This document shows, one piece after another, positions 18,802 through 60,806 of a stretch of 64,000 nucleotides of DNA. Numbering within the stretch: position 1 is the first letter of the stretch; every line of letters starts with the position of its first letter. This stretch comes from Oscillospiraceae bacterium (GTDB taxonomy: Bacteria > Bacillota > Clostridia > Oscillospirales > Ruminococcaceae): the NCBI GenBank assembly GCA_045532595.1, contig JAZSGG010000008.1, forward strand, positions 969 to 64,968, in the 5' to 3' direction. A program made the translations under genes and the position numbers. The notes under the pieces are model-generated. The model was not told where the DNA came from, searched no databases, and was given only the letters and a program-made list of their open reading frames with translations.

Positions 18802-20115
18802 TCATTCCTCAATGTCTTTGTCAACAGCGAATTGCGAATGTACCTTTTCCACCTCACTGCGGATATCAAGAAAAACCTCCGCTATCTGAGGATCGAAATC
18901 CTCGCCGCTGCCCTGTCTTATTATATCAAAACACTTATCAAGAGGCATTGCATCACGATAACAGCGCTTCTCAGATACCGCATCGAACACATCCGCAACC
19001 GCCATTATCCTTGCGCACAGCGGAATGTCCGTGCCGCTAAGTCCGTCAGGATATCCCCTGCCGTTCCACTTTTCGTGGTGATATCTTGCGACCTCAAATG
19101 CCATCGTGCGGTAATCCTCATCGCCCATGTTGCGGAAGGTCTCACGGATGATATCGCCGCCCCTTGCCGCATGAGTTTTCATTTCAGTATACTCCTCATC
19201 GGTAAGCTTGCCCGGTTTTCTGAGAACAGCATCAGATACAGCTACCTTGCCGATATCATGCATAGGCGCAGCCTTGCACAGGTGCGTGATATAATCCTTT
19301 GTAAGTACCGAGCTGCAGATATCTCTTGCCCGCAGCTCCTCAGCAATAAGCTCGACATATCTGCTTGTCCGCTTTATGTGACCTCCGGTGTTGTTATCAC
19401 GGTTTTCTATGAGGTTTGCAAATCCCATCACAGTTTCGGTGTGCAGCTTTGAAAGCTCCTGCAGAGCGGGCGCCTCGGTGTTCATATAAACGCCCAGTAT
19501 CATAACGGTAACTGCAACACAGGTAATAAGAGTTTCGGGGAATATCATCTGCACTGTTGTAACTGCTGCAAGCACCAGCAGATATGTGAAGATGCTTGCA
19601 CGCTTATGCCCTGCAATGTAATTCCATCGGCGCAGAAATGTTCCCAGTGTAAGGACGATATACACTGCAGCCATAATAAAGCAGGTGTAAGCCGAAACTC
19701 CCATGGAATAATCAGTGTATGCTCCATCAATATATTCCAACGAATGTATATTGCACACGACCATCACCGCATTTATTGCAAACGGCAGACATATCAGCAT
19801 TTTTCCACGCCTGCTTTCAGGAAATGCGCCTGTAATATGAAGCATATACAGGAACAATGCAAATATAACAAGATCAATGCTCAGAAGGAATAAAGCATGC
19901 AGAATATCGTTGACGACAGTCGGAATAGCCTCACGATGATTCACAGTGAAAGCCGTTGCGCCATCCAGTGTAACGCTTACTATTCCCAGCACCAACAGTC
20001 TGAAGAAGGGTGCGACTCCGATTCCCCTGCGATATATACGGCATTCATTAAGATAGATGAACGCTATGTATATCAGCACCACAAGGCAGCTTGCCTGAAG
20101 CCTGATGTGTTCCAT
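18802..20115 (-). CDS. Membrane HD-GYP c-di-GMP phosphodiesterase
   Basis: Multi-TM N-terminus; RDNNTGGH, HDIGK, HHEKWNGRGYP, AVADVFDA. Confidence 0.9.
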   Translation of the reverse strand: MEHIRLQASCLVVLIYIAFIYLNECRIYRRGIGVAPFFRLLVLGIVSVTLDGATAFTVNHREAIPTVVNDILHALFLLSIDLVIFALFLYMLHITGAFPESRRGKMLICLPFAINAVMVVCNIHSLEYIDGAYTDYSMGVSAYTCFIMAAVYIVLTLGTFLRRWNYIAGHKRASIFTYLLVLAAVTTVQMIFPETLITCVAVTVMILGVYMNTEAPALQELSKLHTETVMGFANLIENRDNNTGGHIKRTSRYVELIAEELRARDICSSVLTKDYITHLCKAAPMHDIGKVAVSDAVLRKPGKLTDEEYTEMKTHAARGGDIIRETFRNMGDEDYRTMAFEVARYHHEKWNGRGYPDGLSGTDIPLCARIMAVADVFDAVSEKRCYRDAMPLDKCFDIIRQGSGEDFDPQIAEVFLDIRSEVEKVHSQFAVDKDIEE

Positions 20116-21605
20116 TACTTCGCCAGCCTTTCAAGCTCCTCAGCCATCTGCTTGATATCACGAACCATGAAGCCGAGAGTCTCGATGCCTGCACTGTTCT
20201 CCTGAATAGCGGCTGCCATGTGCTGAACCGCACCGCAGTTGTTCTCAATATTACCGCTGACTCTTTCCAGCTTATCATTGACTTCGCTGCCCTTTACTGT
20301 AACGCTGTCTATAACTGCATTCATATCTGCAATATTTCTGGATATCTCAGCATTGGAACGGCTTATCTGCTCAGCAGATGCACGCATCTGCTGCATGCTC
20401 TCCATACCCTCACGGGTAAGCTCGAAATTCTTTTCCATGGACGCAACTGTACCTGTGATATTCTCTGTTACCTGTCCGATGATATCGCCTATCTCAGAAG
20501 CTGCCTTCTTTGTCTGCTCAGAAAGGCTCTTTGTCTCGCCTGCTACTACAGAAAATCCCTTGCCTGCCGCACCTGCACGGGCAGCCTCGATAGATGCGTT
20601 TATTGCGAGGATATTCGTCTGCATAGAGATATCCTCAATAACCTTGATGATCCTGATGATCTGCTCAGACTGCTCGGAAAGGCGGGAAATAATTGCCTTA
20701 CTCTCTTCTGTACCCTTGCATATCTCATCCATACTGTTGCTTGCAAGAGCCATTTTTTCGTCATTTTCCGCGGTGATGATATCAGCCTTTTCTGTGAGGG
20801 CTGCAATACTGCGGCTCATATCCGAAAGCGCGTCGAGGTCATCGGAAATAAGGTTCATATTATCCTCAACGTTCTTGATGTGATCAAAATTCGCTTCGCT
20901 GTCCCGCATTACATTTGCGGATTCATCTGCGATGCTGCGGTTGGATTCCGCTTCTGCAGAGGATATCTTATCAAGCTCTGTCACAGTCAGAAGAAGCTTT
21001 CCCGATACCTCGAGAGACTTCTCACGCATGATACGCTGCTGCTCTGCGCCCATCAGGTCGCCGAGCATTGATGTGGTACGCTTGCAGAGCATAGTGAAGA
21101 TGGCAGATATTGCAAACAGTATAAGAGATCTGGGAATTATGCCGAATAAGAGAACATCAGTAACGCTCTCAAAATTGTGATCCACCACATGACCTGCAGA
21201 GAAGCAGGAAAGCTGGCCCATAGATACTCCAACTATTGTGGCAAAAGTAGCTATCAGATTAAGCTTACCTGAAAAATAAAGGCTTGCAATAGCTATAGGA
21301 TATACAAACAGCAGAACAGCGTGCCAGGAAAGATACACCGATACTACCATTGTAAAAACCGTTGCACACACTACGATAACATACTTCACCTACAAGCCGT
21401 CTTTTTTCATAAAATTAACAATGACCGTAGGCACTAACAGCATTACCGCACCTTTTATAAACGCCATTATCATCGTATTCAGATCAATGACAAAGATGCC
21501 CATGATATCAAGCACAACTACCAGTGCATATACAAGCACTGTGATCCTCATCACCTTTGCAGCCGCCTTGTTGGCACTTCTTTCGTTTTCTCTTAATAGC
21601 TCCAT
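20115..21605 (-). pseudogene. Methyl-accepting chemotaxis protein interrupted by one in-frame TAG (21390-21392)
   Basis: ORFs 21390-21605 and 20115-21389 are contiguous and in frame: KKDGL*VKYVIV; MCP signature QTNILAINASIEAARAGAAGKGFSVVAGE. Confidence 0.85.
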
Positions 21606-24696: not shown

Positions 24697-24731
24697 AAAA
24701 AAGAACACCGCACCCTGAGATGCGGCGTTCT
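24697..24731 (-). terminator. Terminator of solute-binding protein 1
   Basis: AGAACGCCGCA-loop-TGCGGTGTTCT plus T-tract. Confidence 0.75.
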
Positions 24732-24742
24732 GAACGAGCGGA

Positions 24743-26257
24743 TTATTTGTATTCGTCGATGATTGCTTCAACGAGAGGAGCTACCTCATTAACCTTCTGA
24801 GTCCAGGATTCCTCTGCGAAGGAACAGTCGATCTGAGTCTGACAGATGTGCTTCTTCATCTCAGCACCGAAGCCGAACAGATCCTCGATAACGAAGGAGA
24901 ACTTCTCGGGATTCTTCATCTCTACCCAGAGATCATAAAGATCCTCATCCCAGGTGATGCGCCACTTCTGCATACCCTCATACTTACCTGCTGTGTAAGT
25001 GATCTTTGCGGGAGCGATGTGATCGTTTCTTATCTGCTCCTTGATAGCGGAATCGGTCTCATACAGGCGATTGCACATGATGAAATCAATGGCACCTGCC
25101 ATGTTCTTTGCACCCTTGGGAACCATAAAGCCATAGCAACTTGAAGCCTGATAATAAGCATCAGACTGGGGATCTCTGGGGTACGGAACAAATGCAAAAT
25201 CAGATACTGTATCGTGGATATCGTTCTCAACGCCTGTTGGGTTCTGGATGTTCTCGGTGGAAGCGATGTATGTCCACTCGGGCTCAAGACCGAGGAACAG
25301 GATCTTATCACTTACAGAAGCGAACACCTGAGGAGATACCCAGTCGCCGTGGGGATGGCTTGTGGGATAAAGCAGACCGCTTCTGCCCATCTCTGCCATG
25401 AACTCAACAGCTCTTGTAACATCAGGATGCTGCAGGTTGTTGACAATGGTTCCGTCAGGCAGCAGATCAACAACGATAACGCCTGTGGTGTTAACGAATG
25501 CATTTACTGTGTTATCGGTGCAGTAATAACCAATGTGATCGTCAGAGATATTGCAGAAATCCATCATAAGCTGACGCCATGCATCCCAGGTCCACTCGCC
25601 GTTCAGATACATCTCATAGGGATCCTGAAGACCGTTATCTGCAATGGTCCTGCGATTATAGTTCAGCGCATAGCTTGTAACGATCCTGTCGGGGAAATAG
25701 TAGTGCTTTCCCTTGTACTCGAATGCGTCTATGAGGTGTCTCATATCAGCCCAGATGGGGTCGTCAATATTCAGATGATCGTCCAGCGGCTCATACATAT
25801 TCTTACTTACGCCGAAGGGGAACGCCTCCAGCTCGTATGTAAGCAGATCGGGAGAATCATCAGCTGCGATAAGGGTAGCGAGCTTGTCAAAGTAGCCATC
25901 GCCGAAGGATGCGCTGATCCATTCGAGCTTTCCGCCGTATACCTCAGACTGGAAGATAGCTAACTGCTCCTTTGTCTTCTGATCGGGAACAAGGTCGTAA
26001 TAACCCAGATACTTTACTGTGCCTGCGTTACCACTGGGAGTATAGGTACTTGTATCAAGATCCTTGATCTCAGCATCAGTCGCAGCATTTGCGTCAGGAT
26101 CTGTGGTGGTATTAGCACCATTAGTTGTGGAAGTCACTCCGGGACCTCCTGCTGTGGTACCTGCCTGAGATGTAGGAGCCTGCTCATCACAAGCTGTCAT
26201 TCCCAGGATCATTGCCGCTGCAAGACAGCAGCTGAGCACTTTTTTGATTCGGTTCAT
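24743..26257 (-). CDS. Carbohydrate ABC solute-binding lipoprotein, paralogue 1
   Basis: Lipobox MTAC; KLATLIAADDSPDL, YNRRTI..GLQDPYE, FAFVPYP. Confidence 0.85.
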   Translation of the reverse strand: MNRIKKVLSCCLAAAMILGMTACDEQAPTSQAGTTAGGPGVTSTTNGANTTTDPDANAATDAEIKDLDTSTYTPSGNAGTVKYLGYYDLVPDQKTKEQLAIFQSEVYGGKLEWISASFGDGYFDKLATLIAADDSPDLLTYELEAFPFGVSKNMYEPLDDHLNIDDPIWADMRHLIDAFEYKGKHYYFPDRIVTSYALNYNRRTIADNGLQDPYEMYLNGEWTWDAWRQLMMDFCNISDDHIGYYCTDNTVNAFVNTTGVIVVDLLPDGTIVNNLQHPDVTRAVEFMAEMGRSGLLYPTSHPHGDWVSPQVFASVSDKILFLGLEPEWTYIASTENIQNPTGVENDIHDTVSDFAFVPYPRDPQSDAYYQASSCYGFMVPKGAKNMAGAIDFIMCNRLYETDSAIKEQIRNDHIAPAKITYTAGKYEGMQKWRITWDEDLYDLWVEMKNPEKFSFVIEDLFGFGAEMKKHICQTQIDCSFAEESWTQKVNEVAPLVEAIIDEYK

Positions 26258-26386
26258 TTCAGTTCCTCCATTACAATTGCGTAATCGTTTACGCATCACA
26301 AACTTATTATACACTAATTATCCGACAAATGCAATAGGTAAATTCAATTTTTAGCTAAATTAGTTTACAAATTTCCGAAAAACATT

Positions 26387-26412
26387 GCCCCATGGCAATA
26401 CTGTCATGGGGC
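26387..26412 (-). terminator. Hairpin downstream of the flagellin
   Basis: GCCCCATGACA-gtat-TGCCATGGGGC on the minus strand. Confidence 0.65.
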
Positions 26413-26434
26413 TATGAAAATAACTGATGCTTTA

Positions 26435-29400
26435 TCATGCCAGAACATCCATAATAGAGCTGTGCTGCTGCTTGCTCTGCTCTATCATTGCATTCTGTGC
26501 CTGCAGAAGTATCTGCTGCTTTGCAATCTCTGCAGTTTCTGTGGCGATGTCTGCGTCACGCAGCGTGGAATCAGCCTGCTCGAGATTCTCCACATAAGCA
26601 GTGTTTCTGGAATGGGTATGGCGGGATCGGTTCTCATTCGCACCCGAAAGCGCACGCCAACGGGACAGATAGTTCACCGCAGCATCTACCCTGTCCATAG
26701 CCTTAGCGGCACGGGGAGCAGTCGTAACGCCTGTGGTATTGATGCGCATAAGGTGATCGTCCACCCTTGTTCTGAGATACCAGATATATGTATCCGTTCT
26801 TCTGCCTGTATGGATGCCGATTTCGCTGTCGCTCTCACGGCTTTCACTGCCGTAGAAGATATCATCAGCGGCATTACCTACGAACTTGTCGATATCATAA
26901 TCACCGTTTTCTATGGTGTAGAACATCAGATGTCCATCCATATTCGTGCAGCGGACTATGCTGTCTGTCTGCTCATACTGGGAATTAAGATACTCGTACA
27001 GCTGATCGCAGGTGTATGTGCCTTCGGGGATAGTGACGGAATATGTAGTTCCGTCAAGATCGTAGCTGAAAGTATCATTCTCGCCCGTACGGATCATGAT
27101 TCCGTTGGTGAGATCTGCCTTACCGATGACTTTCGATGGCGTAGGTGACTGAGTAGCTTCATAAAAGATGCGGTATGCAGCACTGCCTCTGATACCGTCA
27201 ATGATGCATTCAAGATCGTCCACCGTACCGTCATCAGGCACATTGAAGCTCAGCACCAGCTTATCGCCGCTCTTGATGGCTGTATCAGGCTCAGGGAGAC
27301 CCAGATCCGCAAGTCCGATAGTAGCTTTGAATGTATCCTGCGGGAACGGCTCGCCGTTCTTATCCGTCATCTTGTTGATGGCTTCCCTGCCCGCTGTCTG
27401 GATAGCTGCGGCAAGCTCTCCCGGCATATATTCACCTGCGGGGATATTGAATTCCACCTTATAAGTCTCGCCGTCATAACGAAGATCGAAAATGAGCTGA
27501 TCGTTAAGTGCGGGATAGATTATTACATTCTTCTTTGCCTTGAACTCATCATCAGTCTCAGGACCCAGATCGTTTCTTCCAACGATATATGTGAGATAAG
27601 AGCCTGTGGAGGTTCCTGCCTTTTCGCTATGCCTTGTAATGCCTGAATAGCTCGCATTCTGGAACACCTTATCAAACAATCCGCCCTTGAAATTACCGAT
27701 GGTGCGCAGTGGGGTGATCGTCGCACTGCGGATGCCGATATTTCCCGAACCATTGGTATAGACCTCCAGTGAATTTGCAGGGAGCGTCTGATTTATACTG
27801 TTCTGAATAGCCTGAGCAAGACTTGCAGCAGTATATGTGCCTTCCGCTATCTGTACTTCCACGGGATAAGTGTTGCCATCCTGAGTAAATTCGAACGTCA
27901 TTTTATTGTTGTAGCTCTTGATATCTATGCTGCTGATAGAATTCTTGCCGAGAATATAACAGGGACTCTCAACTCTTCGTGTGGATGTGGGAGAGCTTAC
28001 ATTCACCGCACGCTTGAAATAGGGCGATGTATTCGCACTGTTAAGGGAAATACTCTTGCCCAGACCCTTATCATTGGTGGTGATAATGAGATTCGTACCA
28101 TCATCTGTGATAGTGACATTGGCAGCAGCAAGACCGTTTCTCAGCTGAGTGGTAAGGTCTGCCCTGCCGGATGCACCCTTATAGACGCCATGGGTGATAT
28201 CAAACTCATACAAAGTGCCATTTATCGTAAGTGCAACGTGATCGTTGCTGTCGGTGATCTCCACACCGTTGCCGCTGAAAAGCGTACCGTACTGATTATT
28301 GGTTGCCTTTGCGGGATACTTAACGGTATTAGTTGAAGTATCGACTTCTCCTCCGCCTGAGGTACTCGCCTTACTGATATACTTATCAACCGCAGCCGTA
28401 CCGCCGAGATTTGACAGCCTGTAACCATCGCCGCCGTTTACGGTCTTGAATGTCAGACCCTTATTACTGCCCGAGGATGCATAGCTTGCCGTGATCTTGC
28501 CGCTGAGGTCGGGATCAGCAGCTATGGCGGAATTTATGGCATTAGTGAACTCCGTAGCATTATTGTAGGTGCCATCGGGGCTAGGGATGGGGATGTTGAT
28601 TGTCAAAGTTTCGGTAACAGTGTTATCGGGATCGTTAGGATCGGGATGTGTATAATCCATGGTTATGGTATTATCCGCAGATGTCACCGTTTTAGGGAAA
28701 TGGGTATCTATACCCTCTGTGCGGATGGATGCAGGATTCTCCACGTTGCCCGTTGCAGGATTATAGTTCGGTGTGGAGGTACTGATAACCTTTTTGGTGT
28801 AGCCTATCCTGCAGGTGCTGGCTTCATCTATCGTGACATTGCCCGACTCCTTCAGAGGACCTGTAAATATCAATGATTTACCGTCAGTACCCACCTTTAC
28901 CGTAGTTGCAGGTGTGCCGCCGTCTGCTGCAGCTATCTGTGCATTTATCTCTGCGGCAAGATCAGAAAGCGAAGTGTAGGTCGTTTGTGTCAGCCTGAGA
29001 TCATAGGTGTGCTGACCTGCTGTCATCACGAGATTATTATTCGTGCCGTCAATAGCATAGGGAATCTGCGAAAGCGCATTTTTTACAGTAAGCGTTGCAG
29101 GAACATAGACCGTATTATTCTCCACAACTGCACCTGAGCTGGACGCAAGTGAGCTTTTTGTTGCTTTATTAAGTAGCGTTCCCGTTACATTCGAGAACTT
29201 AGCTTCAGCACCCGAATAGTCAGACTTTATAATGATATCGCTGCCACTGGATGTGGCTTTTGCTCTGCCCTTTATAGCTTCATTTATAAGACTCATTGCC
29301 TGAGCAGAGGTAGAGCCTTTGGGAATAACGATAGAATAGGACTCCGAACCCTTATCATCCTCAAGATCAAACGAGAAAGTGATATCCTTTTCGGACTTTC

Positions 29401-31591
29401 CCGGAACTGAGAACTGAGTAAGTACATCATCGAGAGTGATCTTTGCGGGAGTCTTTTCCTTCAGCACGCCGCCTACGATACCCTCGGTCTGCTCATAAAC
29501 AGTTTTACCATCAACCACATCCACATTAGCGCCCGAATAACGGATATATGTATCGCTCTTCTGGGATGTGGAGGACTGTTCCTTCACTTCCTGCGTGCCT
29601 TTAACAGTGGAGCCTGAAGAAGATGTTACATTTGCACGGGATGTGCCAGGAACGGTATTTGAGGAGGTCTGATATGCGCTCTCCGTGCCGTTTACAGTGG
29701 AAATGTTGTCATAATAACGGGAGCCTGCAATGAGCCTGTTGTACGCCGAAGAAGTAGTATCAACAGCTATGCGCTCGATGCAGCTGCTGTTGGGACCCTC
29801 GGCATAAAGCTTCAGTGTATTGGATGCATCAATGCTGAACTGCAGCTTGTCCGCAATATCGGGATAGTTGTTATCGAGATAGTCGTTCATTGCCTGAACC
29901 AGTTCATCAGTGGTGGAATAGGTAGTCGGAGGGATCACCACATCTATGCGGTGAACGGTCTTATCGGCTGCTGCAGCCTCGTTGTCATCGGACACGGTGA
30001 TATCAAAGGAGAGAGTATTCTCAGCCGCAGGGATAGGCACCGTGGGACCCAGCGGCTTATATGCAGTGAAGATAGCTCGGCTGTAGGCAGACGAACCCTG
30101 CGCAGGAGTCACCTTATTGAGCGTAGCCGCATCAAACAGATCATACACCATATAGGGACTGGGGACGTTAGATGTGTTCAGCTTGACATCGCACTTGTTA
30201 CCGAACTGATCGGAAGTGATATCTATTCCGCCTTTTGCATTGAGAGAAACAGTGAAAGGAACATCGGCAGCGTCTATCTGCTGCTGGATGGCATCAATCA
30301 GATCAGTTGGTGATGCGTATATCTTTCTGTCCTCGGAAGCGTCAAGCAGATCAAATCTGAGAGTCTTGTTCTGAGCGGAAGCATCGTCGCCGTAATATTT
30401 GAAATTCAGTACGAAATAATCGTTTCGTCCACGCTCGATGACAAGGTCGTTCACGATACGCTTTGTTCCTGACAGAACTGCTTGGGAATTATCTATTGAG
30501 CCATATTTACAGATATCATAGATGGGAGATGTGATTCCGTCCATCTTAATGAAGTTTCCCGAAAGACCAGTGATAGTGGATTCACTGGCTAGACCTATAA
30601 TAAGCTGCCCTTTATCGTTCTCGGTCTTTACCGCCTCCACATCACCCGGGATGCCTGTCTGAGTGAGCTTCTGATTTATTGCATCCACAAGCTGTGTGCG
30701 GTTGTAATTGCCTGCATCGAGCTTAATGGAATACAATGTGTCGTCTGTGTTTCCCACACGGAAAGCAATGGTATCGTTCTGTCCCGCAATAACAGGCATA
30801 GTGACATTCTCATCACGGAAAACAGTAACGCCCAGCAGATAACCATCCGAAGATCCGATAACGGTGTTATAGAAAAGCGAGGATGCGCTGCCGCTGAGAT
30901 GATCCAGTGAGCCGCCCTCAACCTGCATGGTGAACTGATTATCAACATTGACACCAATGATAAGCTCGGGAGCATCATCAATAAGCTCTGTGTCGATCAT
31001 ATCGGCTATCTCCTCAGGAGAATAGCTGCCATGAGGAATGGTGACAGTGCATTCTTTGGATACGCCGTCAATTATATAGCCGAGAGTAAGCGTGTCATTC
31101 TTTGCATTGATCCTGACAGTCTCGCCGTGCTTTACATCACCCTCCACCTTCTCATAGGCAGAAAGATGCTTTTCAAACAGCGGAACACCATTGAAATCCG
31201 CATTATCCGTCATCTGGTCGATCTCATCCAGCAACTGCTGATACTCAAGATCCAACGCTTCACGGTCAACAGCGTCGTCATAGGTGCCGTTCTCTGCCTG
31301 AACTGCTATCTCCTTCAGGCGCTGCAGGATATTGTGTATCTCCTGCGACGCACCCTCAACGGTGCGCACGAAAGAGATTCCGTCATCTATATTGCGCAGA
31401 CCCTGTCTGAGTCCACGCTTAATGGAACGCAGCTTTTCAGACACAGCAAGTCCAGCCGCATCATCTGCCGCACGATTTATTCTATAGCCTGTGGAAAGAC
31501 GCTCAGAGGACTTCTTCAGCTTCTTCAAGGACTCCGACTGCTTATCCAGTGCATATTGAGTTGTGATCATGTTCTGAATTACAAGACCCAT
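26435..31591 (-). CDS. fliC: Giant flagellin (~1718 aa) with a repeat-built central region
   Basis: N-terminal RLSTGYRINRAADDAAGLAVSEK...QRLKEIAVQAENGT...FNG; C-terminal ENL..ADS.LRDAD.A.E; SD GAGGTG before ATG 31591. Confidence 0.9.
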   Translation of the reverse strand: MGLVIQNMITTQYALDKQSESLKKLKKSSERLSTGYRINRAADDAAGLAVSEKLRSIKRGLRQGLRNIDDGISFVRTVEGASQEIHNILQRLKEIAVQAENGTYDDAVDREALDLEYQQLLDEIDQMTDNADFNGVPLFEKHLSAYEKVEGDVKHGETVRINAKNDTLTLGYIIDGVSKECTVTIPHGSYSPEEIADMIDTELIDDAPELIIGVNVDNQFTMQVEGGSLDHLSGSASSLFYNTVIGSSDGYLLGVTVFRDENVTMPVIAGQNDTIAFRVGNTDDTLYSIKLDAGNYNRTQLVDAINQKLTQTGIPGDVEAVKTENDKGQLIIGLASESTITGLSGNFIKMDGITSPIYDICKYGSIDNSQAVLSGTKRIVNDLVIERGRNDYFVLNFKYYGDDASAQNKTLRFDLLDASEDRKIYASPTDLIDAIQQQIDAADVPFTVSLNAKGGIDITSDQFGNKCDVKLNTSNVPSPYMVYDLFDAATLNKVTPAQGSSAYSRAIFTAYKPLGPTVPIPAAENTLSFDITVSDDNEAAAADKTVHRIDVVIPPTTYSTTDELVQAMNDYLDNNYPDIADKLQFSIDASNTLKLYAEGPNSSCIERIAVDTTSSAYNRLIAGSRYYDNISTVNGTESAYQTSSNTVPGTSRANVTSSSGSTVKGTQEVKEQSSTSQKSDTYIRYSGANVDVVDGKTVYEQTEGIVGGVLKEKTPAKITLDDVLTQFSVPGKSEKDITFSFDLEDDKGSESYSIVIPKGSTSAQAMSLINEAIKGRAKATSSGSDIIIKSDYSGAEAKFSNVTGTLLNKATKSSLASSSGAVVENNTVYVPATLTVKNALSQIPYAIDGTNNNLVMTAGQHTYDLRLTQTTYTSLSDLAAEINAQIAAADGGTPATTVKVGTDGKSLIFTGPLKESGNVTIDEASTCRIGYTKKVISTSTPNYNPATGNVENPASIRTEGIDTHFPKTVTSADNTITMDYTHPDPNDPDNTVTETLTINIPIPSPDGTYNNATEFTNAINSAIAADPDLSGKITASYASSGSNKGLTFKTVNGGDGYRLSNLGGTAAVDKYISKASTSGGGEVDTSTNTVKYPAKATNNQYGTLFSGNGVEITDSNDHVALTINGTLYEFDITHGVYKGASGRADLTTQLRNGLAAANVTITDDGTNLIITTNDKGLGKSISLNSANTSPYFKRAVNVSSPTSTRRVESPCYILGKNSISSIDIKSYNNKMTFEFTQDGNTYPVEVQIAEGTYTAASLAQAIQNSINQTLPANSLEVYTNGSGNIGIRSATITPLRTIGNFKGGLFDKVFQNASYSGITRHSEKAGTSTGSYLTYIVGRNDLGPETDDEFKAKKNVIIYPALNDQLIFDLRYDGETYKVEFNIPAGEYMPGELAAAIQTAGREAINKMTDKNGEPFPQDTFKATIGLADLGLPEPDTAIKSGDKLVLSFNVPDDGTVDDLECIIDGIRGSAAYRIFYEATQSPTPSKVIGKADLTNGIMIRTGENDTFSYDLDGTTYSVTIPEGTYTCDQLYEYLNSQYEQTDSIVRCTNMDGHLMFYTIENGDYDIDKFVGNAADDIFYGSESRESDSEIGIHTGRRTDTYIWYLRTRVDDHLMRINTTGVTTAPRAAKAMDRVDAAVNYLSRWRALSGANENRSRHTHSRNTAYVENLEQADSTLRDADIATETAEIAKQQILLQAQNAMIEQSKQQHSSIMDVLA
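26950..31120 (-). repeat. About 11 degenerate protein repeats inside the flagellin
   Basis: Recurring I-x-x-x-N-D/N-x-L/F-x-F...Y-x-V/I-x-I-P-x-G-x-Y-x-x-x-x-L-x-x-A-I-N, spaced about 110-190 aa; boundaries approximate. Confidence 0.75.
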
Positions 31592-31627
31592 GCATAACAC
31601 CTCTGTATTGCATAATATATCAGGTTA

Positions 31628-31656
31628 ATTATAACACAATTTTGCAGCAAACACAA
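31628..31656 (-). promoter_or_regulatory. Extended -10 SigA-like promoter of the flagellin
   Basis: TGT-TATAAT with TTGTGT 17 nt upstream. Confidence 0.5.
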
Positions 31657-31729
31657 TAGTAATAGAACACATTTGGAAAAAGTTACAAAATCACAACATC
31701 ACGTTTGTGCTAAACATCTCCACAAAATG

Positions 31730-31753
31730 AAGAAACGGCGCTTTTCAGCGCCG
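31730..31753 (-). terminator. Terminator of solute-binding protein 2
   Basis: CGGCGCT-gaaa-AGCGCCG then TTTCTT. Confidence 0.7.
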
Positions 31754-31785
31754 CCCCTTCAATCGTATATTTTCAGGATGATACG

Positions 31786-33348: not shown

Positions 33349-34821
33349 TTATTTGTATTCGCAGACGAAATTTGTGAATTCGGATGTTCCATTCACTGCG
33401 TAGAGAGCCATGAGCACTCCTGTAAAGCCTTCTGCCACCTCGCTGGAGAGGTACTTCGTACCGCCGCAGCCGAGATCGGTATACTCGCCATCAGCTTCTA
33501 CGCCGAAGCCGTAAGCATAGTTGTTTGCATGGATGAGCAGCTTTGCTATGCCGCTCTTTATCGATACCGATTTCTGAATGTGCTTGATGCCGCCGATGTT
33601 CAGCTTCAGGATGGCCTCGAAGCCGTTCTCAGTATTACGGACTGCGACCTCGTAATGCTCGTTTTCCGTCATATACATGGTGAGACCGCCCTCGCCATCT
33701 GTAACATTGATGTCGCAGCTTATTTCAGCTACAAAATCTCGCTGGCGCAGACCGATGAATGTGGGAGAATCCACCATATCAAGGGTGATATCCGTGCCGT
33801 GGAGAACTGCCTTGCTTTCGGAAAGCTCGTAATTTTCCATGTGCGGATGGCGCATGAAGCACCATTCGATGTTCCATGATGTATTCTCAAAAGTATAGAG
33901 CTTCTTTTCATTCTGTTCGGTACCGTATTTGTTCTCATAGGAGTCTGCGGTGGTGCCGTCTGTTCCGGCAGTGAACCAGCCGTCCTCATGGAACTGCACA
34001 GGTGTCAGGAACACTTCTCTGCCGAGGTGGTGAAACGGCTGCCAGATGCCGATCTGACGGAAGCCGAGACACAGGATATGCCAGTTGCCCATCTCGTCAC
34101 AGATGAGATCGCCATGACCGATGCCCTGAATGATGTTCGGAGCCTTGTTGCGGTTGGTCAGCACGGGATTCTTCGCATAGCCCTCAAAGGGTCCCCACAC
34201 GCTTTCGGAGCGTGCATAGGTTATCATGTGTCCGTACTCAGTGCCGCCCTCAGCTGCCATGAGATAATAGTATCCGTTTATCTTGTACATGTGAGGACTT
34301 TCAAGGTATCTTCCGCCTGAACCCTGCCACAAACAACGTCTGGGAGAAAGTCTCTCGCCCGTTTCGATGTTGATCTCGCACTGGATAACACCGCCCTTAC
34401 CCTCATCGTCCTGTCCGTTGCTCATGAAGTATGTATGACCGTCCTCAAAGAAGAGAGAGGGATCAATACCGCCCTGATCCACATAAATGGGATCGGACCA
34501 CTCGCCGTAGATATCATCTGTCCAGACATAGAAATTCTGATGGGTGGTGTCGTTTGTTGTCACCATGTAGAATCTGCCATCATGATAGCGGATGGTGGGA
34601 GCAAATACTCCACCTGAGCTGTTGATCTTCTCCAGCATCACCTGATTCTTTCTGGTGAGAACGTGGCCGATCTGCTTCCAGTTTACAAGATCCTCGCTTT
34701 CGAACAGAGGAACTCCGGGGAAATACTGGAACGAGCTGCACACGAGATAATACTTTCCGTTTGCAAAGCACACGCTGGGGTCGGGATAAAAGCCCTTAAC
34801 TACGGGATTGTTATATGTCAT
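33349..34821 (-). CDS. GH43 beta-xylosidase/arabinofuranosidase, no signal peptide
   Basis: NPVVKGFYPDPSVC, FAPTIRYH, GIDPSLF, LESPH, AAEGGTEYGH; C-terminal beta-sandwich. Confidence 0.9.
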   Translation of the reverse strand: MTYNNPVVKGFYPDPSVCFANGKYYLVCSSFQYFPGVPLFESEDLVNWKQIGHVLTRKNQVMLEKINSSGGVFAPTIRYHDGRFYMVTTNDTTHQNFYVWTDDIYGEWSDPIYVDQGGIDPSLFFEDGHTYFMSNGQDDEGKGGVIQCEINIETGERLSPRRCLWQGSGGRYLESPHMYKINGYYYLMAAEGGTEYGHMITYARSESVWGPFEGYAKNPVLTNRNKAPNIIQGIGHGDLICDEMGNWHILCLGFRQIGIWQPFHHLGREVFLTPVQFHEDGWFTAGTDGTTADSYENKYGTEQNEKKLYTFENTSWNIEWCFMRHPHMENYELSESKAVLHGTDITLDMVDSPTFIGLRQRDFVAEISCDINVTDGEGGLTMYMTENEHYEVAVRNTENGFEAILKLNIGGIKHIQKSVSIKSGIAKLLIHANNYAYGFGVEADGEYTDLGCGGTKYLSSEVAEGFTGVLMALYAVNGTSEFTNFVCEYK

Positions 34822-36076: not shown

Positions 36077-37648
36077 TCACCAGTTGAGCTGCAGCTCGCC
36101 GCCGTTTATCAGTGCATCAATATTATCGAGCAAGCGGTCGGTGTAGATCTGGCGCACCTTGAACAGCACCTTTCCGTTCACACGGACGATGTTCTTGCGG
36201 TCATCCGACTGATAGAACTCGATCACGTCGCTTTCAGTATTGTATACCTCATGATATTCGTCACGATACTCGAACTTTACAGTGATGTAAGGAGCATACT
36301 CGCCGTCAGTGAGATAAAGCTCATCGCCTATCGCAGAGATAAGCTGCTGATAAAGCTGTCTGAACTTATCGCCGTTAAGCTCTGTGCCGTCAAGAGTGAA
36401 GCTGTTCTGCTTTGCGTCTCCTGTAACGGTGAACAGGTATTCCCTTTCGGGAGTGGTGATGGTGAGCCTATCTATCGTATAGATATAAGGCGATACGGGA
36501 CGTCTTGAAACGATATCCTCAAGAGTCATCGTACACCATGGCAGTGAGCTTGTGGCAAATGCATAGATGCCGTTATTGCCTTCGATCATGCCGTAATAGC
36601 CGGTAACCGTGGTGAGCGTGGGTGTATCATCAGCATCGGTATCAGTTGTGGTTACTATCTGATCGCCGATGTAGAGGATATTGCGCTTTCCGCCGTACTT
36701 AAAGGTCACCTTGCAGAAGGGATCATCAAGACCTGTTGCCGCAAGAAGCTCCTCATCAGCTTCAACAGACACGCAGGACGCTGCTGTAAGACCATACAGA
36801 CCGTAGCAGTAGTTCTGTCCCTTGGTAGAATCGACCTCGGCAAGCACGGGGCTTGTAACTCTGTGGGAATTGAAGGTGGTGATAACGGAATTGATATCCT
36901 GCGCCTCATCCTGAATATCGTACATATAAGAGATCTCAATAGGCTCATCAAAATCCTTACGCTCGACTACCATGTAGTCAAGCTCCTTGGGATTCTCAGG
37001 ATTGTATCCATCGGTGAACACCAGATTCACGAAATCATTGATAGCATAGAACGCCTTGTTTACGGTGTAATAACCGATCTGATAAACATCGCTGCTGCCA
37101 TCCTTGCGGCAGTACACGAAGTTCTCGGCAGCAGGGTTTCTGATGCCGAAGTGTACGGTCTCGGAAGTGCCGTCCTCAAAGCTTATCTTTGCAGTTGCAA
37201 GCGGCTGCTGGAGTCCGTACTTATCAAGATCCTCAGCGGCTTCCTCAACAGTCTTGTTGGCGGTCATTCCTGCCATAGTGTTCATCAGTGCCTTGACTGT
37301 GGTGTCGTTAGGCTGCAGACCTGCCATCTCGGGGCTTACCCAGAAATATTCATCCACTGCGGAAACGACGCCTTCGGCATCTGTTGAAGAAACAGTGCGT
37401 TCATCCCTGTTGAAGGTGTAGCTGCCTGTCTCGTTCTCTATCTGCAGGGTGATGACCTGAGAGCCATCCTTATTTGTGAGGATCGCTGCAGTATCTTCTG
37501 CATCGCTTACTACAGCGGAAGAGTCGGAGGAGGTCTCCTCCGAGCCTTCGGGCTTTGTCATCACCAGCACAAGGCATACAACGCCGAGTACCAGTAAAAG
37601 TCCTGCTGCAATAATAATAGTTTTTGTGTTTTTTGAAAGCTTAGCCAT
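36077..37648 (-). CDS. DUF4340-domain membrane-anchored protein
   Basis: Single N-terminal TM; DLDKYGLQQP, LAATGLDDP repeats. Confidence 0.8.
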   Translation of the reverse strand: MAKLSKNTKTIIIAAGLLLVLGVVCLVLVMTKPEGSEETSSDSSAVVSDAEDTAAILTNKDGSQVITLQIENETGSYTFNRDERTVSSTDAEGVVSAVDEYFWVSPEMAGLQPNDTTVKALMNTMAGMTANKTVEEAAEDLDKYGLQQPLATAKISFEDGTSETVHFGIRNPAAENFVYCRKDGSSDVYQIGYYTVNKAFYAINDFVNLVFTDGYNPENPKELDYMVVERKDFDEPIEISYMYDIQDEAQDINSVITTFNSHRVTSPVLAEVDSTKGQNYCYGLYGLTAASCVSVEADEELLAATGLDDPFCKVTFKYGGKRNILYIGDQIVTTTDTDADDTPTLTTVTGYYGMIEGNNGIYAFATSSLPWCTMTLEDIVSRRPVSPYIYTIDRLTITTPEREYLFTVTGDAKQNSFTLDGTELNGDKFRQLYQQLISAIGDELYLTDGEYAPYITVKFEYRDEYHEVYNTESDVIEFYQSDDRKNIVRVNGKVLFKVRQIYTDRLLDNIDALINGGELQLNW

Positions 37649-39319
37649 TTATCTGTGCCTCCTGCGTACCCAGATAACGATACCGAGTACGATAACGATA
37701 ACGGGAATAACGATGCAGAGGAACACTGCAAGTGTGTTTGCGGTGCCTGCTGTCATATCAAAGCCGCTTATGGAGAAGGACTTGGGTGTGATGGTGATGC
37801 CCTCTTCCCTGCCACAGATATAATTGAACATGTTCACAAGGAATGCGCTGTTGTTTGCATTGCTGTACTCAAGGAACATATCCAGTGCGAAATATTCCGA
37901 ACCAAACGCAACAAGTCTGCTTACATTCTGATTGGTGCTGTGCACTCTGTAAGCCACAATGGCGTTATTGAATACGCCTGATTCAGCAGTATCAAGGCTG
38001 AATTCCTCATCGCCCTGCTGAGTCAGCGGAGACAGGAACGCATTATCGTAGGACTTCAGGATGATCTCCTGCTCGATATTGCCCTTTGTGCCGCCCTCCC
38101 AGATCTGCTTGACGGGACGCATATTCATGCCATAGAAATACAGGTTATTGCCATAGGTGCTGCCTGCATAGTTGGTATCGCATACATCCTGCAGATGGAT
38201 ATAGGGATTGAGAGTACCTGTCAGCGCAATTATCTTGCTGGTATCGCTCTGGCCGATCGCCTCATAGCCTACGGATAATCCCCAGTCGTTAAGGAATCCC
38301 TCAATATTGGGAGTCTCAGGCTGGCTGGTGGATGCAAAATAAACAACGTTCTTATCAAACTGGCCGCCGTTATCAAGGAATCTGTCAAGCTTTGTGAGGT
38401 TGTCAACATCAACATCCATTGTCGGTGCGAACATCACAACGAAGTCGATATCAGTGTCGATCTCCTCTACCTGAGTGAGATTGATCGTCTCCACCTCGTA
38501 GCCGTTCTTCTTCAGAAGATCTCTGAGTGCTGTGCTGTCAAGCTCGCCGTAGCCCTCTGTGAAAGCAATGCGTACAAGCTCGTCATTAGCCACATACATC
38601 ATAGCGGAGACTGCCTCCTGCTCGATGTTAGAATAGATATAGTCGTTTGCATTGAAGCTTGTTCCCGAATAGTAGGCTGCATAGTATGCTTCGTAATATG
38701 CCTCCTGATCAATGGTGATATACTCATCGGCAGGAATGATACGGTATCTGCCTGTATCCTTGCACTCAACCACGATGTAGTTTGCTTCAAGGGTCTCGCC
38801 TGTGAAACGGGAGGTGAAGTTAGGATTCTGATCCAGCAGCAGATAATCGAGAGTGATGCGGTCGTTAGCAACCTCCATCTTTTTCAGGATCTCGTTTACC
38901 TGCTTGTATACAGTACCCATTGCCTCGTAATCGGATTCGGAATTGAGCAGCGTGATCGTGATATCATGGTCAAGCTCTTTCACGAAGTTTTCGGTCTTTT
39001 CGTCGATGGTATACATACCACCTGCGGAAAGATCGGCACTTGCGTTAAAACGATCGGACAGAATGCCCACTATAACGTTCACCAGAACGAGAACGCCGAT
39101 GAACACAAGTGTGAAGATCACTGCAAAGGTACCATGCTTGAAGTTGCGGATATTGAACTTCTTGCCGTTTTCGGATTTCTTTGCCTCAGCCTTCTTTTCT
39201 GCTTCAGCCGCTACGACAGCTTCAAGATCGGGAGCAGCCACAACAGGCTCCTGCTCCTTCTCAACCGCTTCGTTCTGCTTTGCTTCGAGTTCTATCTTGT
39301 TTGTTACTTTCTTGCTCAT
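37649..39319 (-). CDS. GldG-like ABC auxiliary component
   Basis: DLSAGGMYTI, FTEGYGE, C-terminal TM ending WVRRRHR. Confidence 0.8.
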   Translation of the reverse strand: MSKKVTNKIELEAKQNEAVEKEQEPVVAAPDLEAVVAAEAEKKAEAKKSENGKKFNIRNFKHGTFAVIFTLVFIGVLVLVNVIVGILSDRFNASADLSAGGMYTIDEKTENFVKELDHDITITLLNSESDYEAMGTVYKQVNEILKKMEVANDRITLDYLLLDQNPNFTSRFTGETLEANYIVVECKDTGRYRIIPADEYITIDQEAYYEAYYAAYYSGTSFNANDYIYSNIEQEAVSAMMYVANDELVRIAFTEGYGELDSTALRDLLKKNGYEVETINLTQVEEIDTDIDFVVMFAPTMDVDVDNLTKLDRFLDNGGQFDKNVVYFASTSQPETPNIEGFLNDWGLSVGYEAIGQSDTSKIIALTGTLNPYIHLQDVCDTNYAGSTYGNNLYFYGMNMRPVKQIWEGGTKGNIEQEIILKSYDNAFLSPLTQQGDEEFSLDTAESGVFNNAIVAYRVHSTNQNVSRLVAFGSEYFALDMFLEYSNANNSAFLVNMFNYICGREEGITITPKSFSISGFDMTAGTANTLAVFLCIVIPVIVIVLGIVIWVRRRHR

Positions 39320-39335
39320 AGCTGTGCCTCCTTTC

Positions 39336-40073
39336 TCAGCTCCAGCGGCGGCGTTCGAGGACACGCACCGTCAGGAAATTAAAGAGTACGATGAGGCTCA
39401 GGAAGAACACTATATTCTTCAGGCTGAAAATGCCGTAGGTGAACTCCTGATACTTATAGAACACAGAGAGGGACAGGATAAGCTCCTGCAGCCACTCCCA
39501 AGGAACATAATTTGCCAGAACATCGAAAAGGCAGAGTGCGATATTTGCACCGATGCTGCCGATAGCTGCGATCATCTGATTCTCTGTAAGGCTGGAAATG
39601 AAGATGCCTGCAGAGATGTAAACGCCGCCCATAAGGGAGATTCCGACAAGGTTTCCGAACACGGACGCCCAGCCGAAGGTGGCCTCAATGCCTGTCTGCG
39701 CTGCGGTATCCGCAACTGCGCCTGCAAGGAACAGCGCATACACCAGCAGCACTGCAACTCCTAACAGGAAGATAAAGAAAGCAGCAAGGAACTTGCCCAT
39801 TACCAGACCGAATAAGCTTATCGGAGCGGTGAGAGTAAGCTGATCTGTTTTCTGACGCTTATCATCAGCCATGGTTCTCATTGTCAGCACGGGGATGAGT
39901 ATCATCATGATGAAGAACATCCACAGGAAGGTGCTGCCCATATCAGAAAGACCCGCTGTAAGGCATGTCATCCACAGGAAGAGTCCCGAGAATGCATAGA
40001 ACACTGCAAGGAACACATATCCCAGAGGAGATGTGAAATATGATGCGAATTCACGCTTTAAGATTGCTGTCAT
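39336..40073 (-). CDS. GldF-like ABC-2 permease
   Basis: KREFASYFTSPLGYV, QKTDQLTLTAP, LTENQMIAA. Confidence 0.85.
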   Translation of the reverse strand: MTAILKREFASYFTSPLGYVFLAVFYAFSGLFLWMTCLTAGLSDMGSTFLWMFFIMMILIPVLTMRTMADDKRQKTDQLTLTAPISLFGLVMGKFLAAFFIFLLGVAVLLVYALFLAGAVADTAAQTGIEATFGWASVFGNLVGISLMGGVYISAGIFISSLTENQMIAAIGSIGANIALCLFDVLANYVPWEWLQELILSLSVFYKYQEFTYGIFSLKNIVFFLSLIVLFNFLTVRVLERRRWS

Positions 40074-41038
40074 CTGCCTGCACCTCCGTTATCTACATTT
40101 CCATAGAAGTCGCCGGTGGTGAGCTTCAGGAAGATCTCCTCCAGTGTAAGCTCGGAGGAGCGCATCAGAAGGATCGGGTAGCTGCGTTCTGCCATGCGCT
40201 TGAATATCTCACGGCGGATATCACAGCCCTCCTTCGCATTGAGGGAAAATTCTGTAACAGTCTTGTCAACAGTGCGGTTGATGTGTACCTCCACCATATC
40301 GGGGATGCCACTCAGAAGGCTCTGTACCTCCTTTGCGGGACCCTCGATCTGAACGATCAGCTTATGATCAGCAGAGAGGTTATGGGAAAGATTCTCAGTA
40401 GTGTCGTTTGCAACGAGCTTACCCTTGTCGATAACAACGATGCGGTCACAAACAGCCTGCACCTCGGAAAGGATATGCGAGGAAAGGATAACAGTGTGAT
40501 TCTTTCCCAGCTTCTTGATGAGCGTTCTTATCTCGATTATCTGCTTGGGATCGAGACCAACTGTAGGCTCATCGAGTATCAGCACCTTGGGATTTCCCAC
40601 AAGCGCCTGTGCCAGTCCGACACGCTGCTTATAACCCTTGGAAAGATTGCGGATAACACGATTCTTTACATCGGTTATCTTTACAAGTCCGCATATCTCG
40701 TTCAGGTGAGAGCGTCTGGGCATCTTACACTTTTTAAGATCGTAAACGAAGTTAAGGTACTCCATTACGGTCATATCAAGATAAAGCGGCGGCAGCTCAG
40801 GGAGATATCCGATATCCTTCTTGGCTGTAACAGGATCCTCCAGAATGTCAACTCCGTTGATGAGCGCCTGTCCCCCCGAAGAGGAAAGGTAGCCTGTCAG
40901 GATATTCATCGTGGTGGATTTACCTGCACCGTTAGGACCGAGGAAGCCGAGTATCTCGCTTTCATTGGCGGTAAAGCTGATATTATCAACAGCAAGCTTA
41001 CTGCCGTAGCTCTTGCTAAGATTTTTAACTTCTATCAT
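40070..41038 (-). CDS. GldA-like ABC ATP-binding protein
   Basis: GPNGAGKST, LSKGYKQRVGLAQA, LDEPTVGLDP. Confidence 0.92.
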   Translation of the reverse strand: MIEVKNLSKSYGSKLAVDNISFTANESEILGFLGPNGAGKSTTMNILTGYLSSSGGQALINGVDILEDPVTAKKDIGYLPELPPLYLDMTVMEYLNFVYDLKKCKMPRRSHLNEICGLVKITDVKNRVIRNLSKGYKQRVGLAQALVGNPKVLILDEPTVGLDPKQIIEIRTLIKKLGKNHTVILSSHILSEVQAVCDRIVVIDKGKLVANDTTENLSHNLSADHKLIVQIEGPAKEVQSLLSGIPDMVEVHINRTVDKTVTEFSLNAKEGCDIRREIFKRMAERSYPILLMRSSELTLEEIFLKLTTGDFYGNVDNGGAGR

Positions 41039-45784: not shown

Positions 45785-45858
45785 TATTTATTGACCTCCT
45801 TTACACAATGACGCTCCTGCGCTGTTTGACAGCGCAGAAACTATCACAAAAAGCTTTA

Positions 45859-48771: not shown

Positions 48772-48808
48772 TGTAAAAATCCTCCAATACTAGTTAGTTC
48801 AAATCAGA

Positions 48809-49108
48809 TCATATGTTCTTCTTGATGGAGCTGAACAGCCCTTTGTCAAGGATCAGGAAGATAGCGGCACGCTTGCCGACTGCTTCCTGTGCTTCGTCCA
48901 TAGTGAACGGTGCTTTTGCGATCTCGCAGCCGTATCTTTCAGCGGCGAAGCGGATCTCCTTTTCGGTCTTGGGTGAAACATCCTCTGCCAGAAGCAGGCC
49001 CGCCGCCTTGCTCTTGGGCGAAGCCATCTCCTCTACCACTGCATCGAAGCCCATAACGAGCTTTCCTGCACGGCGGCAGAGTCCGAGTGTGGTCAGTATC
49101 TTATTGAT
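48809..49108 (-). CDS. ylxQ: L7Ae-family RNA-binding protein; homology extends upstream of ATG 49054 to an ATC codon
   Basis: In-frame INKILTTLGLCRRAGKLVMGFDAV; upstream in-frame TGA at 49115-49117; SD AAGGAG at 49119-49124. Confidence 0.85.
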   Translation of the reverse strand: MNKILTTLGLCRRAGKLVMGFDAVVEEMASPKSKAAGLLLAEDVSPKTEKEIRFAAERYGCEIAKAPFTMDEAQEAVGKRAAIFLILDKGLFSSIKKNI

Positions 49109-56876: not shown

Positions 56877-56897
56877 GCTCATATTGCTCCGTTAAGA

Positions 56898-60768: not shown

Positions 60769-60806
60769 AGGTCTGTCCTTTCTCAAACATCAATAATATA
60801 ATATAT

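Follow-up and report, generated by a model that had tools for sequence, protein, structure and literature searches.

An uncharacterised giant flagellin of gut Oscillospiraceae carries eleven homologous tandem units between flagellin ends

Within a 64,000-nucleotide (nt) stretch of DNA from an Oscillospiraceae bacterium (assembly GCA_045532595.1, contig JAZSGG010000008.1, positions 969 to 64,968; hereafter the window), we analyzed a gene at 26435-31591 on the minus strand whose sequence marks it as a genuine flagellin of the FliC/Hag family with intact D0/D1 helical ends, and which carries eleven homologous tandem units between those ends. We consider it probable, with real room for other readings, that the product is a filament-forming flagellin bearing a hairpin of IN-type domains. 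At 1718 amino acids (aa; about 185 kDa, pI 4.7), the protein is longer than the 1000 aa above which flagellins are defined as giant, a class for which filaments of 30 nm were shown in two gammaproteobacteria from the sea (Thomson et al. 2018, PMC6248924), and it is an uncharacterised member of that known class rather than a new kind of system. New here are the defined 11-unit architecture with its strictly conserved unit count, the pattern of inner-shell versus distal conservation, the series of relatives with 3 to 12 units, and the cultured 8-unit models. A literature search on tandem-domain or large flagellins in gut Firmicutes returned no description of this Oscillospiraceae family, and an exact-sequence look-up returned no record identical to the protein; the claim to novelty is nonetheless tempered, because Firmicute giant flagellins were already catalogued in 2018.

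The open reading frame (ORF) is uninterrupted on the minus strand, and plus-strand translation of the same span is riddled with stops. It starts at an ATG at 31591, behind a GAGG(TG) ribosome-binding site with a spacer of 8 nt, and this start agrees with the N-termini of orthologues (MALVIR.., MSLVIR..). Both ends of the product scored above the Pfam cut-offs, which bears out the canonical flagellin ends claimed in the preliminary description of this DNA: Flagellin_N (PF00669) matched residues 11-141 with 116.2 bits (cut-off 26.6), over positions 7-136 of the 139 in the profile, and Flagellin_C (PF00700) matched residues 1632-1717 with 43.7 bits against a cut-off of 23, over the whole profile (1-86 of 86). 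The NCBIfam flagellin models reached 150-164 bits (Hag 164) versus 74 bits for the FlgL model TIGR02550, with all of these scores under the full-length cut-offs because of the 1450-aa insertion. AlphaFold predicted two long C-terminal helices (residues 785-877 of the model that spans 841-1718).

The units between these ends share just 15-23% identity with each other, which makes self-BLASTP blind to them, and it detected no internal repeat in the protein. We therefore rely on a profile comparison, in which 87 full-length orthologues were aligned and cut into 11 putative units plus a control segment (640-725), and the pieces were compared by hhalign. Almost every pair of units aligned in register, mostly with 90-99% probability and with a best E-value of 2e-19; the control segment gave no match to units 1-4 or 6-11 and matched the C-terminal half of unit 5 (75%). 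A hidden Markov model (HMM) of the unit, seeded from the 11 window units, likewise found exactly 11 in the window protein, with lengths of 106-143 aa, where about 11 tandem domains had been proposed before, and the 20 motif strings quoted at that time are all present (20/20), one copy each, within residues 161-1521. The unit consensus is I..xND.l.F..(D)G..y.v.IP.GtYt...L..AIN..l......v....G.L.i....G. Each unit does have the 'L..AIN' helix that was said to close it, but in the AlphaFold models this helix sits mid-unit and not at the unit end. Between units 4 and 5 lies a beta-rich insert of ~80 aa, which is a separate element and not a full unit. The parts of the gene are as follows, with all units delimited by hhalign and HMM.

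26435..31591, minus strand: giant flagellin gene, 1718 codons and a TGA stop (ORF reading, Pfam, NCBIfam, orthologue search)
31130..31591, minus strand: N-terminal D0/D1 helical region, residues 1-154, with Flagellin_N at 11-141 (Pfam; mean identity 0.61 to the 87 orthologues; dN among the lowest regional values)
30797..31129, minus strand: unit 1, residues 155-265, proposed to be core-proximal
30455..30805, minus strand: unit 2, residues 263-379, proposed to be core-proximal, with the only weak Pfam Flagellin_IN match (274-314)
30050..30454, minus strand: unit 3, residues 380-514, second motif degenerate
29639..30046, minus strand: unit 4, residues 516-651, the least conserved unit
29399..29638, minus strand: Ser/Thr-rich beta-strand insert, residues about 652-731, like the C-terminal half of a unit (hhalign, AlphaFold)
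29072..29398, minus strand: unit 5, residues 732-840
28712..29071, minus strand: unit 6, residues 841-960
28289..28705, minus strand: unit 7, residues 963-1101, with an in-frame 12-nt indel polymorphism at 28577
27935..28276, minus strand: unit 8, residues 1106-1219
27566..27934, minus strand: unit 9, residues 1220-1342
27110..27535, minus strand: unit 10, residues 1353-1494, proposed to be core-proximal
26768..27109, minus strand: unit 11, residues 1495-1608, proposed to be core-proximal
26438..26767, minus strand: C-terminal D1/D0 helical region, residues 1609-1718, with Flagellin_C at 1632-1717 (Pfam; AlphaFold helices)

Two AlphaFold2 runs with 90-sequence alignments covered residues 142-1105 (predicted local distance difference test, pLDDT, 86.4; predicted template modelling score, pTM, 0.42) and residues 841-1718 (pLDDT 82.1, pTM 0.34). 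Every unit was predicted alike, as a beta-hairpin, a short strand, a helix of ~14 residues and three strands, and residues about 630-720 came out as a confident series of short strands with pLDDT above 90. Foldseek comparison with the Protein Data Bank (PDB) ranked the FliD cap protein at the top (6iwy, probability 0.99-1.0; also 5h5v and 9m6i) and further matched outer domains of Vibrio cholerae flagellins (9n8g and 9n8a, probability 1.0, with a root-mean-square deviation of 3.3-3.6 A over 96-119 columns for 9n8g) and the Sphingomonas cell-surface flagellin p5 (3k8v, probability 0.92), a protein whose beta-domain has the Flagellin_IN motif (PMC9751261). The likeness of the units to the flagellin/hook IN motif, as first described, thus stands by fold (Foldseek 0.92-1.0) but is just marginal by sequence. 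The gathering score of Pfam Flagellin_IN (PF07196) was not reached, with E=0.34 for the whole protein at 274-314 and a match in one of the 11 units at E=0.059; a few homologues have precomputed PF07196 matches, and a 12-unit relative (P0139) lies barely above the cut-off, at 23.4 bits versus 22.7. The unit profile matched P. aeruginosa FliD at E=0.04, a 66-sequence version of it reached E=0.005 to FliD chains (Salmonella cap-filament and related cap entries) and 0.046 to an S. maltophilia flagellin, and a phmmer search of the PDB sequences with the central 1459 aa gave no match. A conserved I-N pair lies in the unit helix (...IPxGxYxxxxLxxAINxx...). Judged by these models, the units are IN-type by fold without being PF07196 members by Pfam's own threshold, and their link to FliD is a remote and mainly structural one. 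Hook-associated proteins and flagellins usually have one to five IN motifs (review, PMC9751261).

The architecture recurs across a family of gut sequences. A search of 5.8 billion proteins revealed about 90 orthologue clusters of 1690-1830 aa with 99-100% query coverage, down to 33% identity, one of which holds 3842 member sequences in public gut assemblies. The few named clusters are metagenome-assembled genomes (MAGs) called 'Oscillospiraceae bacterium' or 'Ruminococcus sp.', names that give almost no taxonomy; the 120 best matches of the window's IF-2 were likewise all uncultured Oscillospiraceae/Ruminococcaceae MAGs, with identities of at most 93%. The unit HMM counted 11 units in every orthologue of ~1700 aa, 8 in a group of ~1200 aa, and 10-12 in a group of ~1610-1650 aa. 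Searched against 1.84 billion representatives, the unit profile found 723 proteins at E <=1e-3 and 120 at <=1e-30, with a copy number never above 12, and among the best 150 matches were 86 complete flagellins with 3-12 units and modes at 8 copies (23 proteins) and 11 copies (26 proteins). On sequence grounds the unit domain also occurs outside flagellins, in a 2684-aa protein (P0229) with nine units (residues 202-903 and 1686-2039), no flagellin ends and no Pfam match. DNA nearly identical to the window was present in metagenomes from gut, faeces and sheep gut, with runs X1-X3 and X16 from sheep or other herbivores. A scan of genome contigs with an orthologue alignment was swamped by the generic flagellin pattern INRAADDAA and gave at least 4 loci. 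Three other runs yielded independent contigs that were colinear with the gene and differed from it by substitutions, at about 3%, and by a single in-frame 12-nt deletion in unit 7; one of these contigs, of 8188 bp, covered 24700-31756 with no further kind of difference. This deletion (at 28577, in the assemblies of runs X1 and X3) lies near the conserved G-T-Y motif of unit 7.

Unlike the usual 'hypervariable' region of flagellins, the centre of these proteins is conserved throughout, with mean identities to the 87 orthologues of 0.37-0.59 versus 0.60-0.61 for D0/D1. Units 1-4 gave 0.57, 0.56, 0.49 and 0.39, the insert 0.37, and units 5-11 gave 0.42, 0.50, 0.52, 0.47, 0.50, 0.59 and 0.58, a pattern that is symmetrical about the middle of the array (0.56-0.59 for units 1, 2, 10 and 11; 0.39-0.52 for units 3-9). 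Between two orthologues (L001 and L006), the nonsynonymous rate (dN) was 0.05-0.06 in units 1, 2, 10 and 11 and 0.11-0.19 in units 3-9, and the D0/D1 ends had the lowest dN in two of the three pairs compared. Whole-gene ratios of nonsynonymous to synonymous rates (dN/dS) were 0.055-0.125 in the three pairs, with 0.22 as the highest computable regional value, but dS was saturated in all pairs and the ratios are rough, so we used the dN ranking and the statement 'well below 1'. The substitutions indicate purifying selection across the gene, as far as sequence comparison can tell. In relatives with 8 or 12 units, the end units map one-to-one to units 1, 2, 10 and 11 (Smith-Waterman scores 105-220), and unit 9 also has its counterpart in the 12-unit relatives and, among the three with 8 units, in P0091. 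For the middle units the mapping is poor, with no clear counterparts.

We propose that the flagellin is exported unfolded via the flagellar type III system and polymerises into the usual filament core. Where other flagellins have a hypervariable region, it carries 11 alpha/beta domains, each of about 110-140 aa, that go back to ancient duplications. Tandem duplications are known to raise a topology problem for flagellins (Thomson et al. 2018, PMC6248924), and since both chain ends must return to D1 and the filament core, an out-and-back hairpin is the simplest reading of the array. In such a hairpin, which the conservation suggests, the inner shell on D1 would consist of the conserved units 1-2 and 10-11, and units 3-9 together with the insert would form a more variable distal part in which units may have been gained or lost in evolution. 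We estimated filament width from mass, taking 159 kDa of outer domains for every 4.7 A of axial rise, and obtained a minimum of about 26 nm if packing is perfect and about 34 nm if it is 50%. To give the 24 nm observed for the filaments of Salmonella and G. thiophilus, the same formula needs a packing of at most 0.45, which makes a very thick filament, of at least 35 nm, likely under this geometric model. The outer region has a net charge of -71 per subunit and 10-29% Ser+Thr, and the coat would accordingly present as strongly acidic and Ser- and Thr-rich. Most likely it would serve to stiffen the filament mechanically or to aid propulsion through viscous digesta, and to cover the D1 core, with sugar binding less likely. 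The giant flagellin is probably one of several in its genome.

Several observations pull away from a filament subunit with a hairpin array. No flagellar structural gene lies in the 64-kb window, and none lies within 10 kb of six Oscillospiraceae orthologues, at whose loci the gene is likewise alone and the neighbourhoods differ. The promoter of the window gene is sigma-A-like rather than sigma-28, as are those of three orthologues (L001, L006 and L008; TTGnnn-N17-TATAAT). The sole run with a transcriptomic label (X11) covers the gene at a depth of 0-5, flat like the rest of the window, and its coverage, even across the window save for cross-mapping on the conserved infB, is indistinguishable from DNA or background. 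The hairpin is drawn from conservation patterns only, the low pTM of 0.34-0.42 means that the relative placement of domains is not predicted, the saturated dS leaves the dN/dS values rough, and the 2024 survey of outer domains has no solved filament structure for any flagellin with more than four of them (PMC11532411). On the other side, a canonical sigma-28/SigD promoter (TAAA-N15-GCCGATA) lies 46-49 nt ahead of the ATG in two orthologues, L007 and L010, and this difference in promoters hints that some lineages may have released the gene from control by the flagellar hierarchy. The isolate Neobacillus sp. PS3-34, moreover, has a complete genome in which an 8-unit relative adjoins fliT, fliS, fliD, flaG and an 823-aa flagellin; 284-aa flagellins and FlhB-like and FliK-like genes belong to the same locus. 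No other protein there has the unit, with FliD and the 823-aa flagellin undetected by the unit HMM. This filament locus connects the lineage with the flagellar system, and it shows that proteins of this kind can occur alongside other flagellins.

The same observations bear on what else the protein could be. Its flagellin ends might serve as an export signal only, for a secreted or surface-held protein outside any filament, which could be an adhesin, a decoy or part of a matrix; we judge this unlikely, although it is the alternative that survives best. It would suit an orphan, monocistronic gene with a sigma-A-like promoter and no flagellar neighbours, and it has parallels in the alginate-binding cell-surface flagellins p5/p6 of Sphingomonas A1 (PMC9751261) and in Campylobacter FlaC, which is described as a secreted flagellin without a motility role (PMC4863622). 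The unit in P0229, away from flagellin ends, adds that the domain is not restricted to filament subunits. Yet D0/D1 is complete in length and ranks with the best-conserved parts of the protein, as fits the constraints of polymerisation, the gradient from inner shell to outer units is what a filament surface would give, and the sigma-28 promoters and the Neobacillus gene cluster both point to the filament.

Rather improbable, in our view, is the role first suggested for the array, that the 11 units form a binding surface on the filament for plant fibre, glycans or mucin and make it an adhesion organelle, a role that would be compatible with the filament-forming flagellin we favour. Fibre-degrading enzymes do lie in the window (GH5-CBM2, GH9, GH43), glycoside hydrolases lie beside several orthologues, and the rate of evolution is 2-4 times higher in the distal units than in those proximal to the core. 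The array itself did not bear this role out. Neither the whole protein nor any single unit matched a carbohydrate-binding module (CBM), lectin, adhesin (Ig-type included) or enzyme family in Pfam, for single units even at E up to 10, the 1446-aa outer region has zero Trp, and its conserved Tyr belongs to the core motif of the fold. Neither an LPXTG nor an HEXXH motif occurs in the protein, which also matched no peptidase family and thus has no flagellinolysin signature. The surface has a strongly acidic character, the units share the fold of a structural domain type native to the flagellum, and all units are under purifying selection with no diversifying signal. An extended form of the idea, to which we give about as little weight, has the protein as the main subunit of a 'bottle-brush' filament of 40-50 nm, the thickest unsheathed one known, in a widespread and uncultured gut lineage of Oscillospiraceae; each of its thousands of subunits would project an 11-domain hairpin, and the fast-evolving distal units would bind plant fibre or mucus. 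If this were true, one organelle would both propel and attach the cell, its architecture would go well beyond solved structures, and it would offer a new route of fibre attachment in the gut.

Much less credible is another axial component with flagellin-like ends, either a giant hook-filament junction protein (FlgL/HAP3) or a cap-like protein. Flagellin_N occurs in FlgL too, the FlgL models do match the protein, the units resemble FliD head domains, and the list of long Flagellin_N (pf00669) proteins of Thomson et al. includes many FlgL entries; the flagellin models nevertheless score about twice the FlgL models, Flagellin_C is matched end to end, and FliD_N and FliD_C gave no match. Finally, although the gene is long, repetitive-looking, from a metagenome-type organism and without an identical protein on record, a misassembled repeat region or decaying pseudogene has next to no plausibility and is refuted computationally, since repeats at 15-23% identity cannot cause assembly collapse, the independent contigs are colinear and exclude misassembly, about 90 orthologue clusters are intact at the same length, the sole indel is in frame, and dN/dS is well below 1.

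Outside the coding region, the signals read around the gene are these.

31598..31603, minus strand: ribosome-binding site GAGGTG, read from the sequence
31628..31656, minus strand: sigma-A-like promoter candidate, TTGTGT, 17 nt, TGnTATAAT (extended -10), ending 36 nt before the ATG (consensus match only)
31728..31761, minus strand: intrinsic terminator with a 15-bp stem, of the upstream solute-binding-protein gene (terminator scan)
26378..26412, minus strand: terminator-like hairpin past the stop codon, GCCCCATG, a 10-nt loop, CATGGGGC, then a T run (found by eye)

The promoter candidate was unlisted by a generic promoter scan because its -35 hexamer matches just 3/6, and the loop of the downstream hairpin is longer than the terminator scanner accepts. 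With terminators on both flanks (31761-31728 upstream; 26412-26378 after the stop), the flagellin gene reads as monocistronic, and the upstream one, as predicted from sequence, sets it apart transcriptionally from the solute-binding-protein gene. An Rfam scan of the window gave no match.

The gene sits between two solute-binding-protein genes, near genes for a GH43, an AAA ATPase, a TetR regulator, a methyl-accepting chemotaxis protein (MCP) and an HD-domain protein, and farther off in the window are a GGDEF-EAL protein, GH5-CBM2, GH9 and a nusA-infB operon. The MCP gene suggests, by its presence, a chemotactic organism. The HD-domain protein, possibly HD-GYP, is directly downstream of the MCP (18802-20115 and 20115-21389, both minus strand, the ORFs meeting at 20115), and the GGDEF-EAL protein (2278-4959, minus strand) has a periplasmic-binding-protein sensor; the three are signalling genes of a kind typical of a motile or surface-switching lifestyle. 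The enzymes comprise a GH43 with a beta-xylosidase C-terminal domain, a GH5 with CBM2, a GH9 with CelD_N and a 720-aa clostripain-family C11 peptidase, and they agree with the gut fibre degrader that the preliminary description had pictured.

33349-34821, 59164-60786 and 56898-59060, minus strand, and 60900-62507, plus strand: ORFs of the fibre enzymes and the C11 peptidase (GH43, GH5-CBM2, C11, GH9)

Elsewhere in the window, a four-gene operon at 36077-41038 (minus strand) encodes an ABC ATPase, an ABC-2 permease, a GldG-like ABC_transp_aux protein with DUF7088 and a DUF4340 protein. A 1005-aa ORF at 45808-48825 (plus strand) with no Pfam match runs antisense to nearly all of infB (45859-48771, minus strand, clearly IF-2) and is most likely a codon-bias artefact. 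Two further ORFs on the minus strand are one of 690 aa (51270-53342) with only an N-terminal zinc ribbon and one of 362 aa (55794-56882) with no Pfam match. At the Neobacillus locus (L011, CP133267.1, 1-23663) there are at least 4 flagellin genes, of 284 aa, 823 aa and 1220 aa and one apparently split into ORFs of 79 aa and 196 aa with a LAGLIDADG endonuclease ORF just downstream, and a 2121-aa ORF with just faint Ig/fn3-like matches lies directly downstream of the 8-unit flagellin.

For orthologues down to 33% identity, 11 outer domains have been kept at roughly six times the amino-acid cost of a minimal flagellin of ~280 aa, and a coat kept despite that cost must pay for itself. The series from 3 to 12 copies, with its conserved inner units, is usable for questions of outer-domain packing, out-and-back topology and filament thickness against swimming in a viscous gut, and the 8-unit relatives in two cultured Bacillaceae make these questions experimentally approachable. 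Given the cluster with 3842 members, the protein may also be an abundant flagellin antigen in animal guts.

Among known systems, the marine gammaproteobacteria cited in the preliminary description are indeed a point of reference, since the giant flagellin of Bermanella marisrubri builds its thick filament and Oleibacter marinus encodes one and has filaments just as thick (PMC6248924), but the class is not confined to them. In the 2018 table there are flagellins from Firmicutes with 1965, 1652 and 1623 aa, the shortest of them in the gut MAG Butyrivibrio sp. CAG:318, as well as Methylobacterium 'flagellin hook IN repeat' proteins of 1562 aa (PMC6248924). The Bermanella and Oleibacter proteins resemble ours in exceeding 1000 aa, in their canonical D0/D1 ends and in a centre enlarged partly via internal domain duplication, and the filaments of both species are at least 30 nm wide. 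They differ in their length of about 1020-1190 aa and in a centre made of two duplicated 'DE' regions plus a novel insert, whereas the window protein has 1718 aa and 11 units and belongs to gut Firmicutes, and the searches made found no sequence relationship between the central regions. The entries of Desulfosporosinus youngiae (1965 aa), Desulfosporosinus sp. (1652 aa) and Butyrivibrio sp. CAG:318 (1623 aa; UniProt, 2017) share the size class and the phylum, and none of them is characterised; the Butyrivibrio entry could belong to the 11-unit family or to the neighbouring family with 10-12 units.

Structurally, the flagellin of Geovibrio thiophilus (9AU6) is alike in drawing several outer domains from the flagellum's own repertoire and in its strongly acidic surface. 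Its D2-D5 form the largest solved outer region, with D4 related to FliD D2 and D5 a duplicate of D4 (PMC11532411), and its four outer domains (about 800 aa, 24-nm filament) are mixed Ig-like/beta-sandwich and nested, whereas those of the window protein are 11 like units in tandem. Vibrio cholerae FlaA-D (9n8g, 9n8a) and Sphingomonas A1 p5 (3k8v) have an outer beta-domain of the same fold, one each as opposed to 11 that are mostly below the Pfam threshold. The D2/D3 of FliD (HAP2; 6iwy, 5h5v, 9m6i, 5fhy) are the best structural match to the unit, with a sequence match that is weak yet consistent (E=0.005-0.04), but FliD has FliD_N/FliD_C ends and forms a pentameric cap, in contrast to the flagellin ends seen here. 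The closest relatives in isolates are the proteins of Neobacillus sp. PS3-34 (P0096, 1220 aa) and Robertmurraya andreesenii DSM 23948 (P0095, 1215 aa), which belong to another family of Firmicutes, are not from the gut, have 8 units and no long insert, and align at 30-35% identity over about one third of the query, and whose units 1, 2, 7 and 8 correspond to units 1, 2, 10 and 11 of the window protein.

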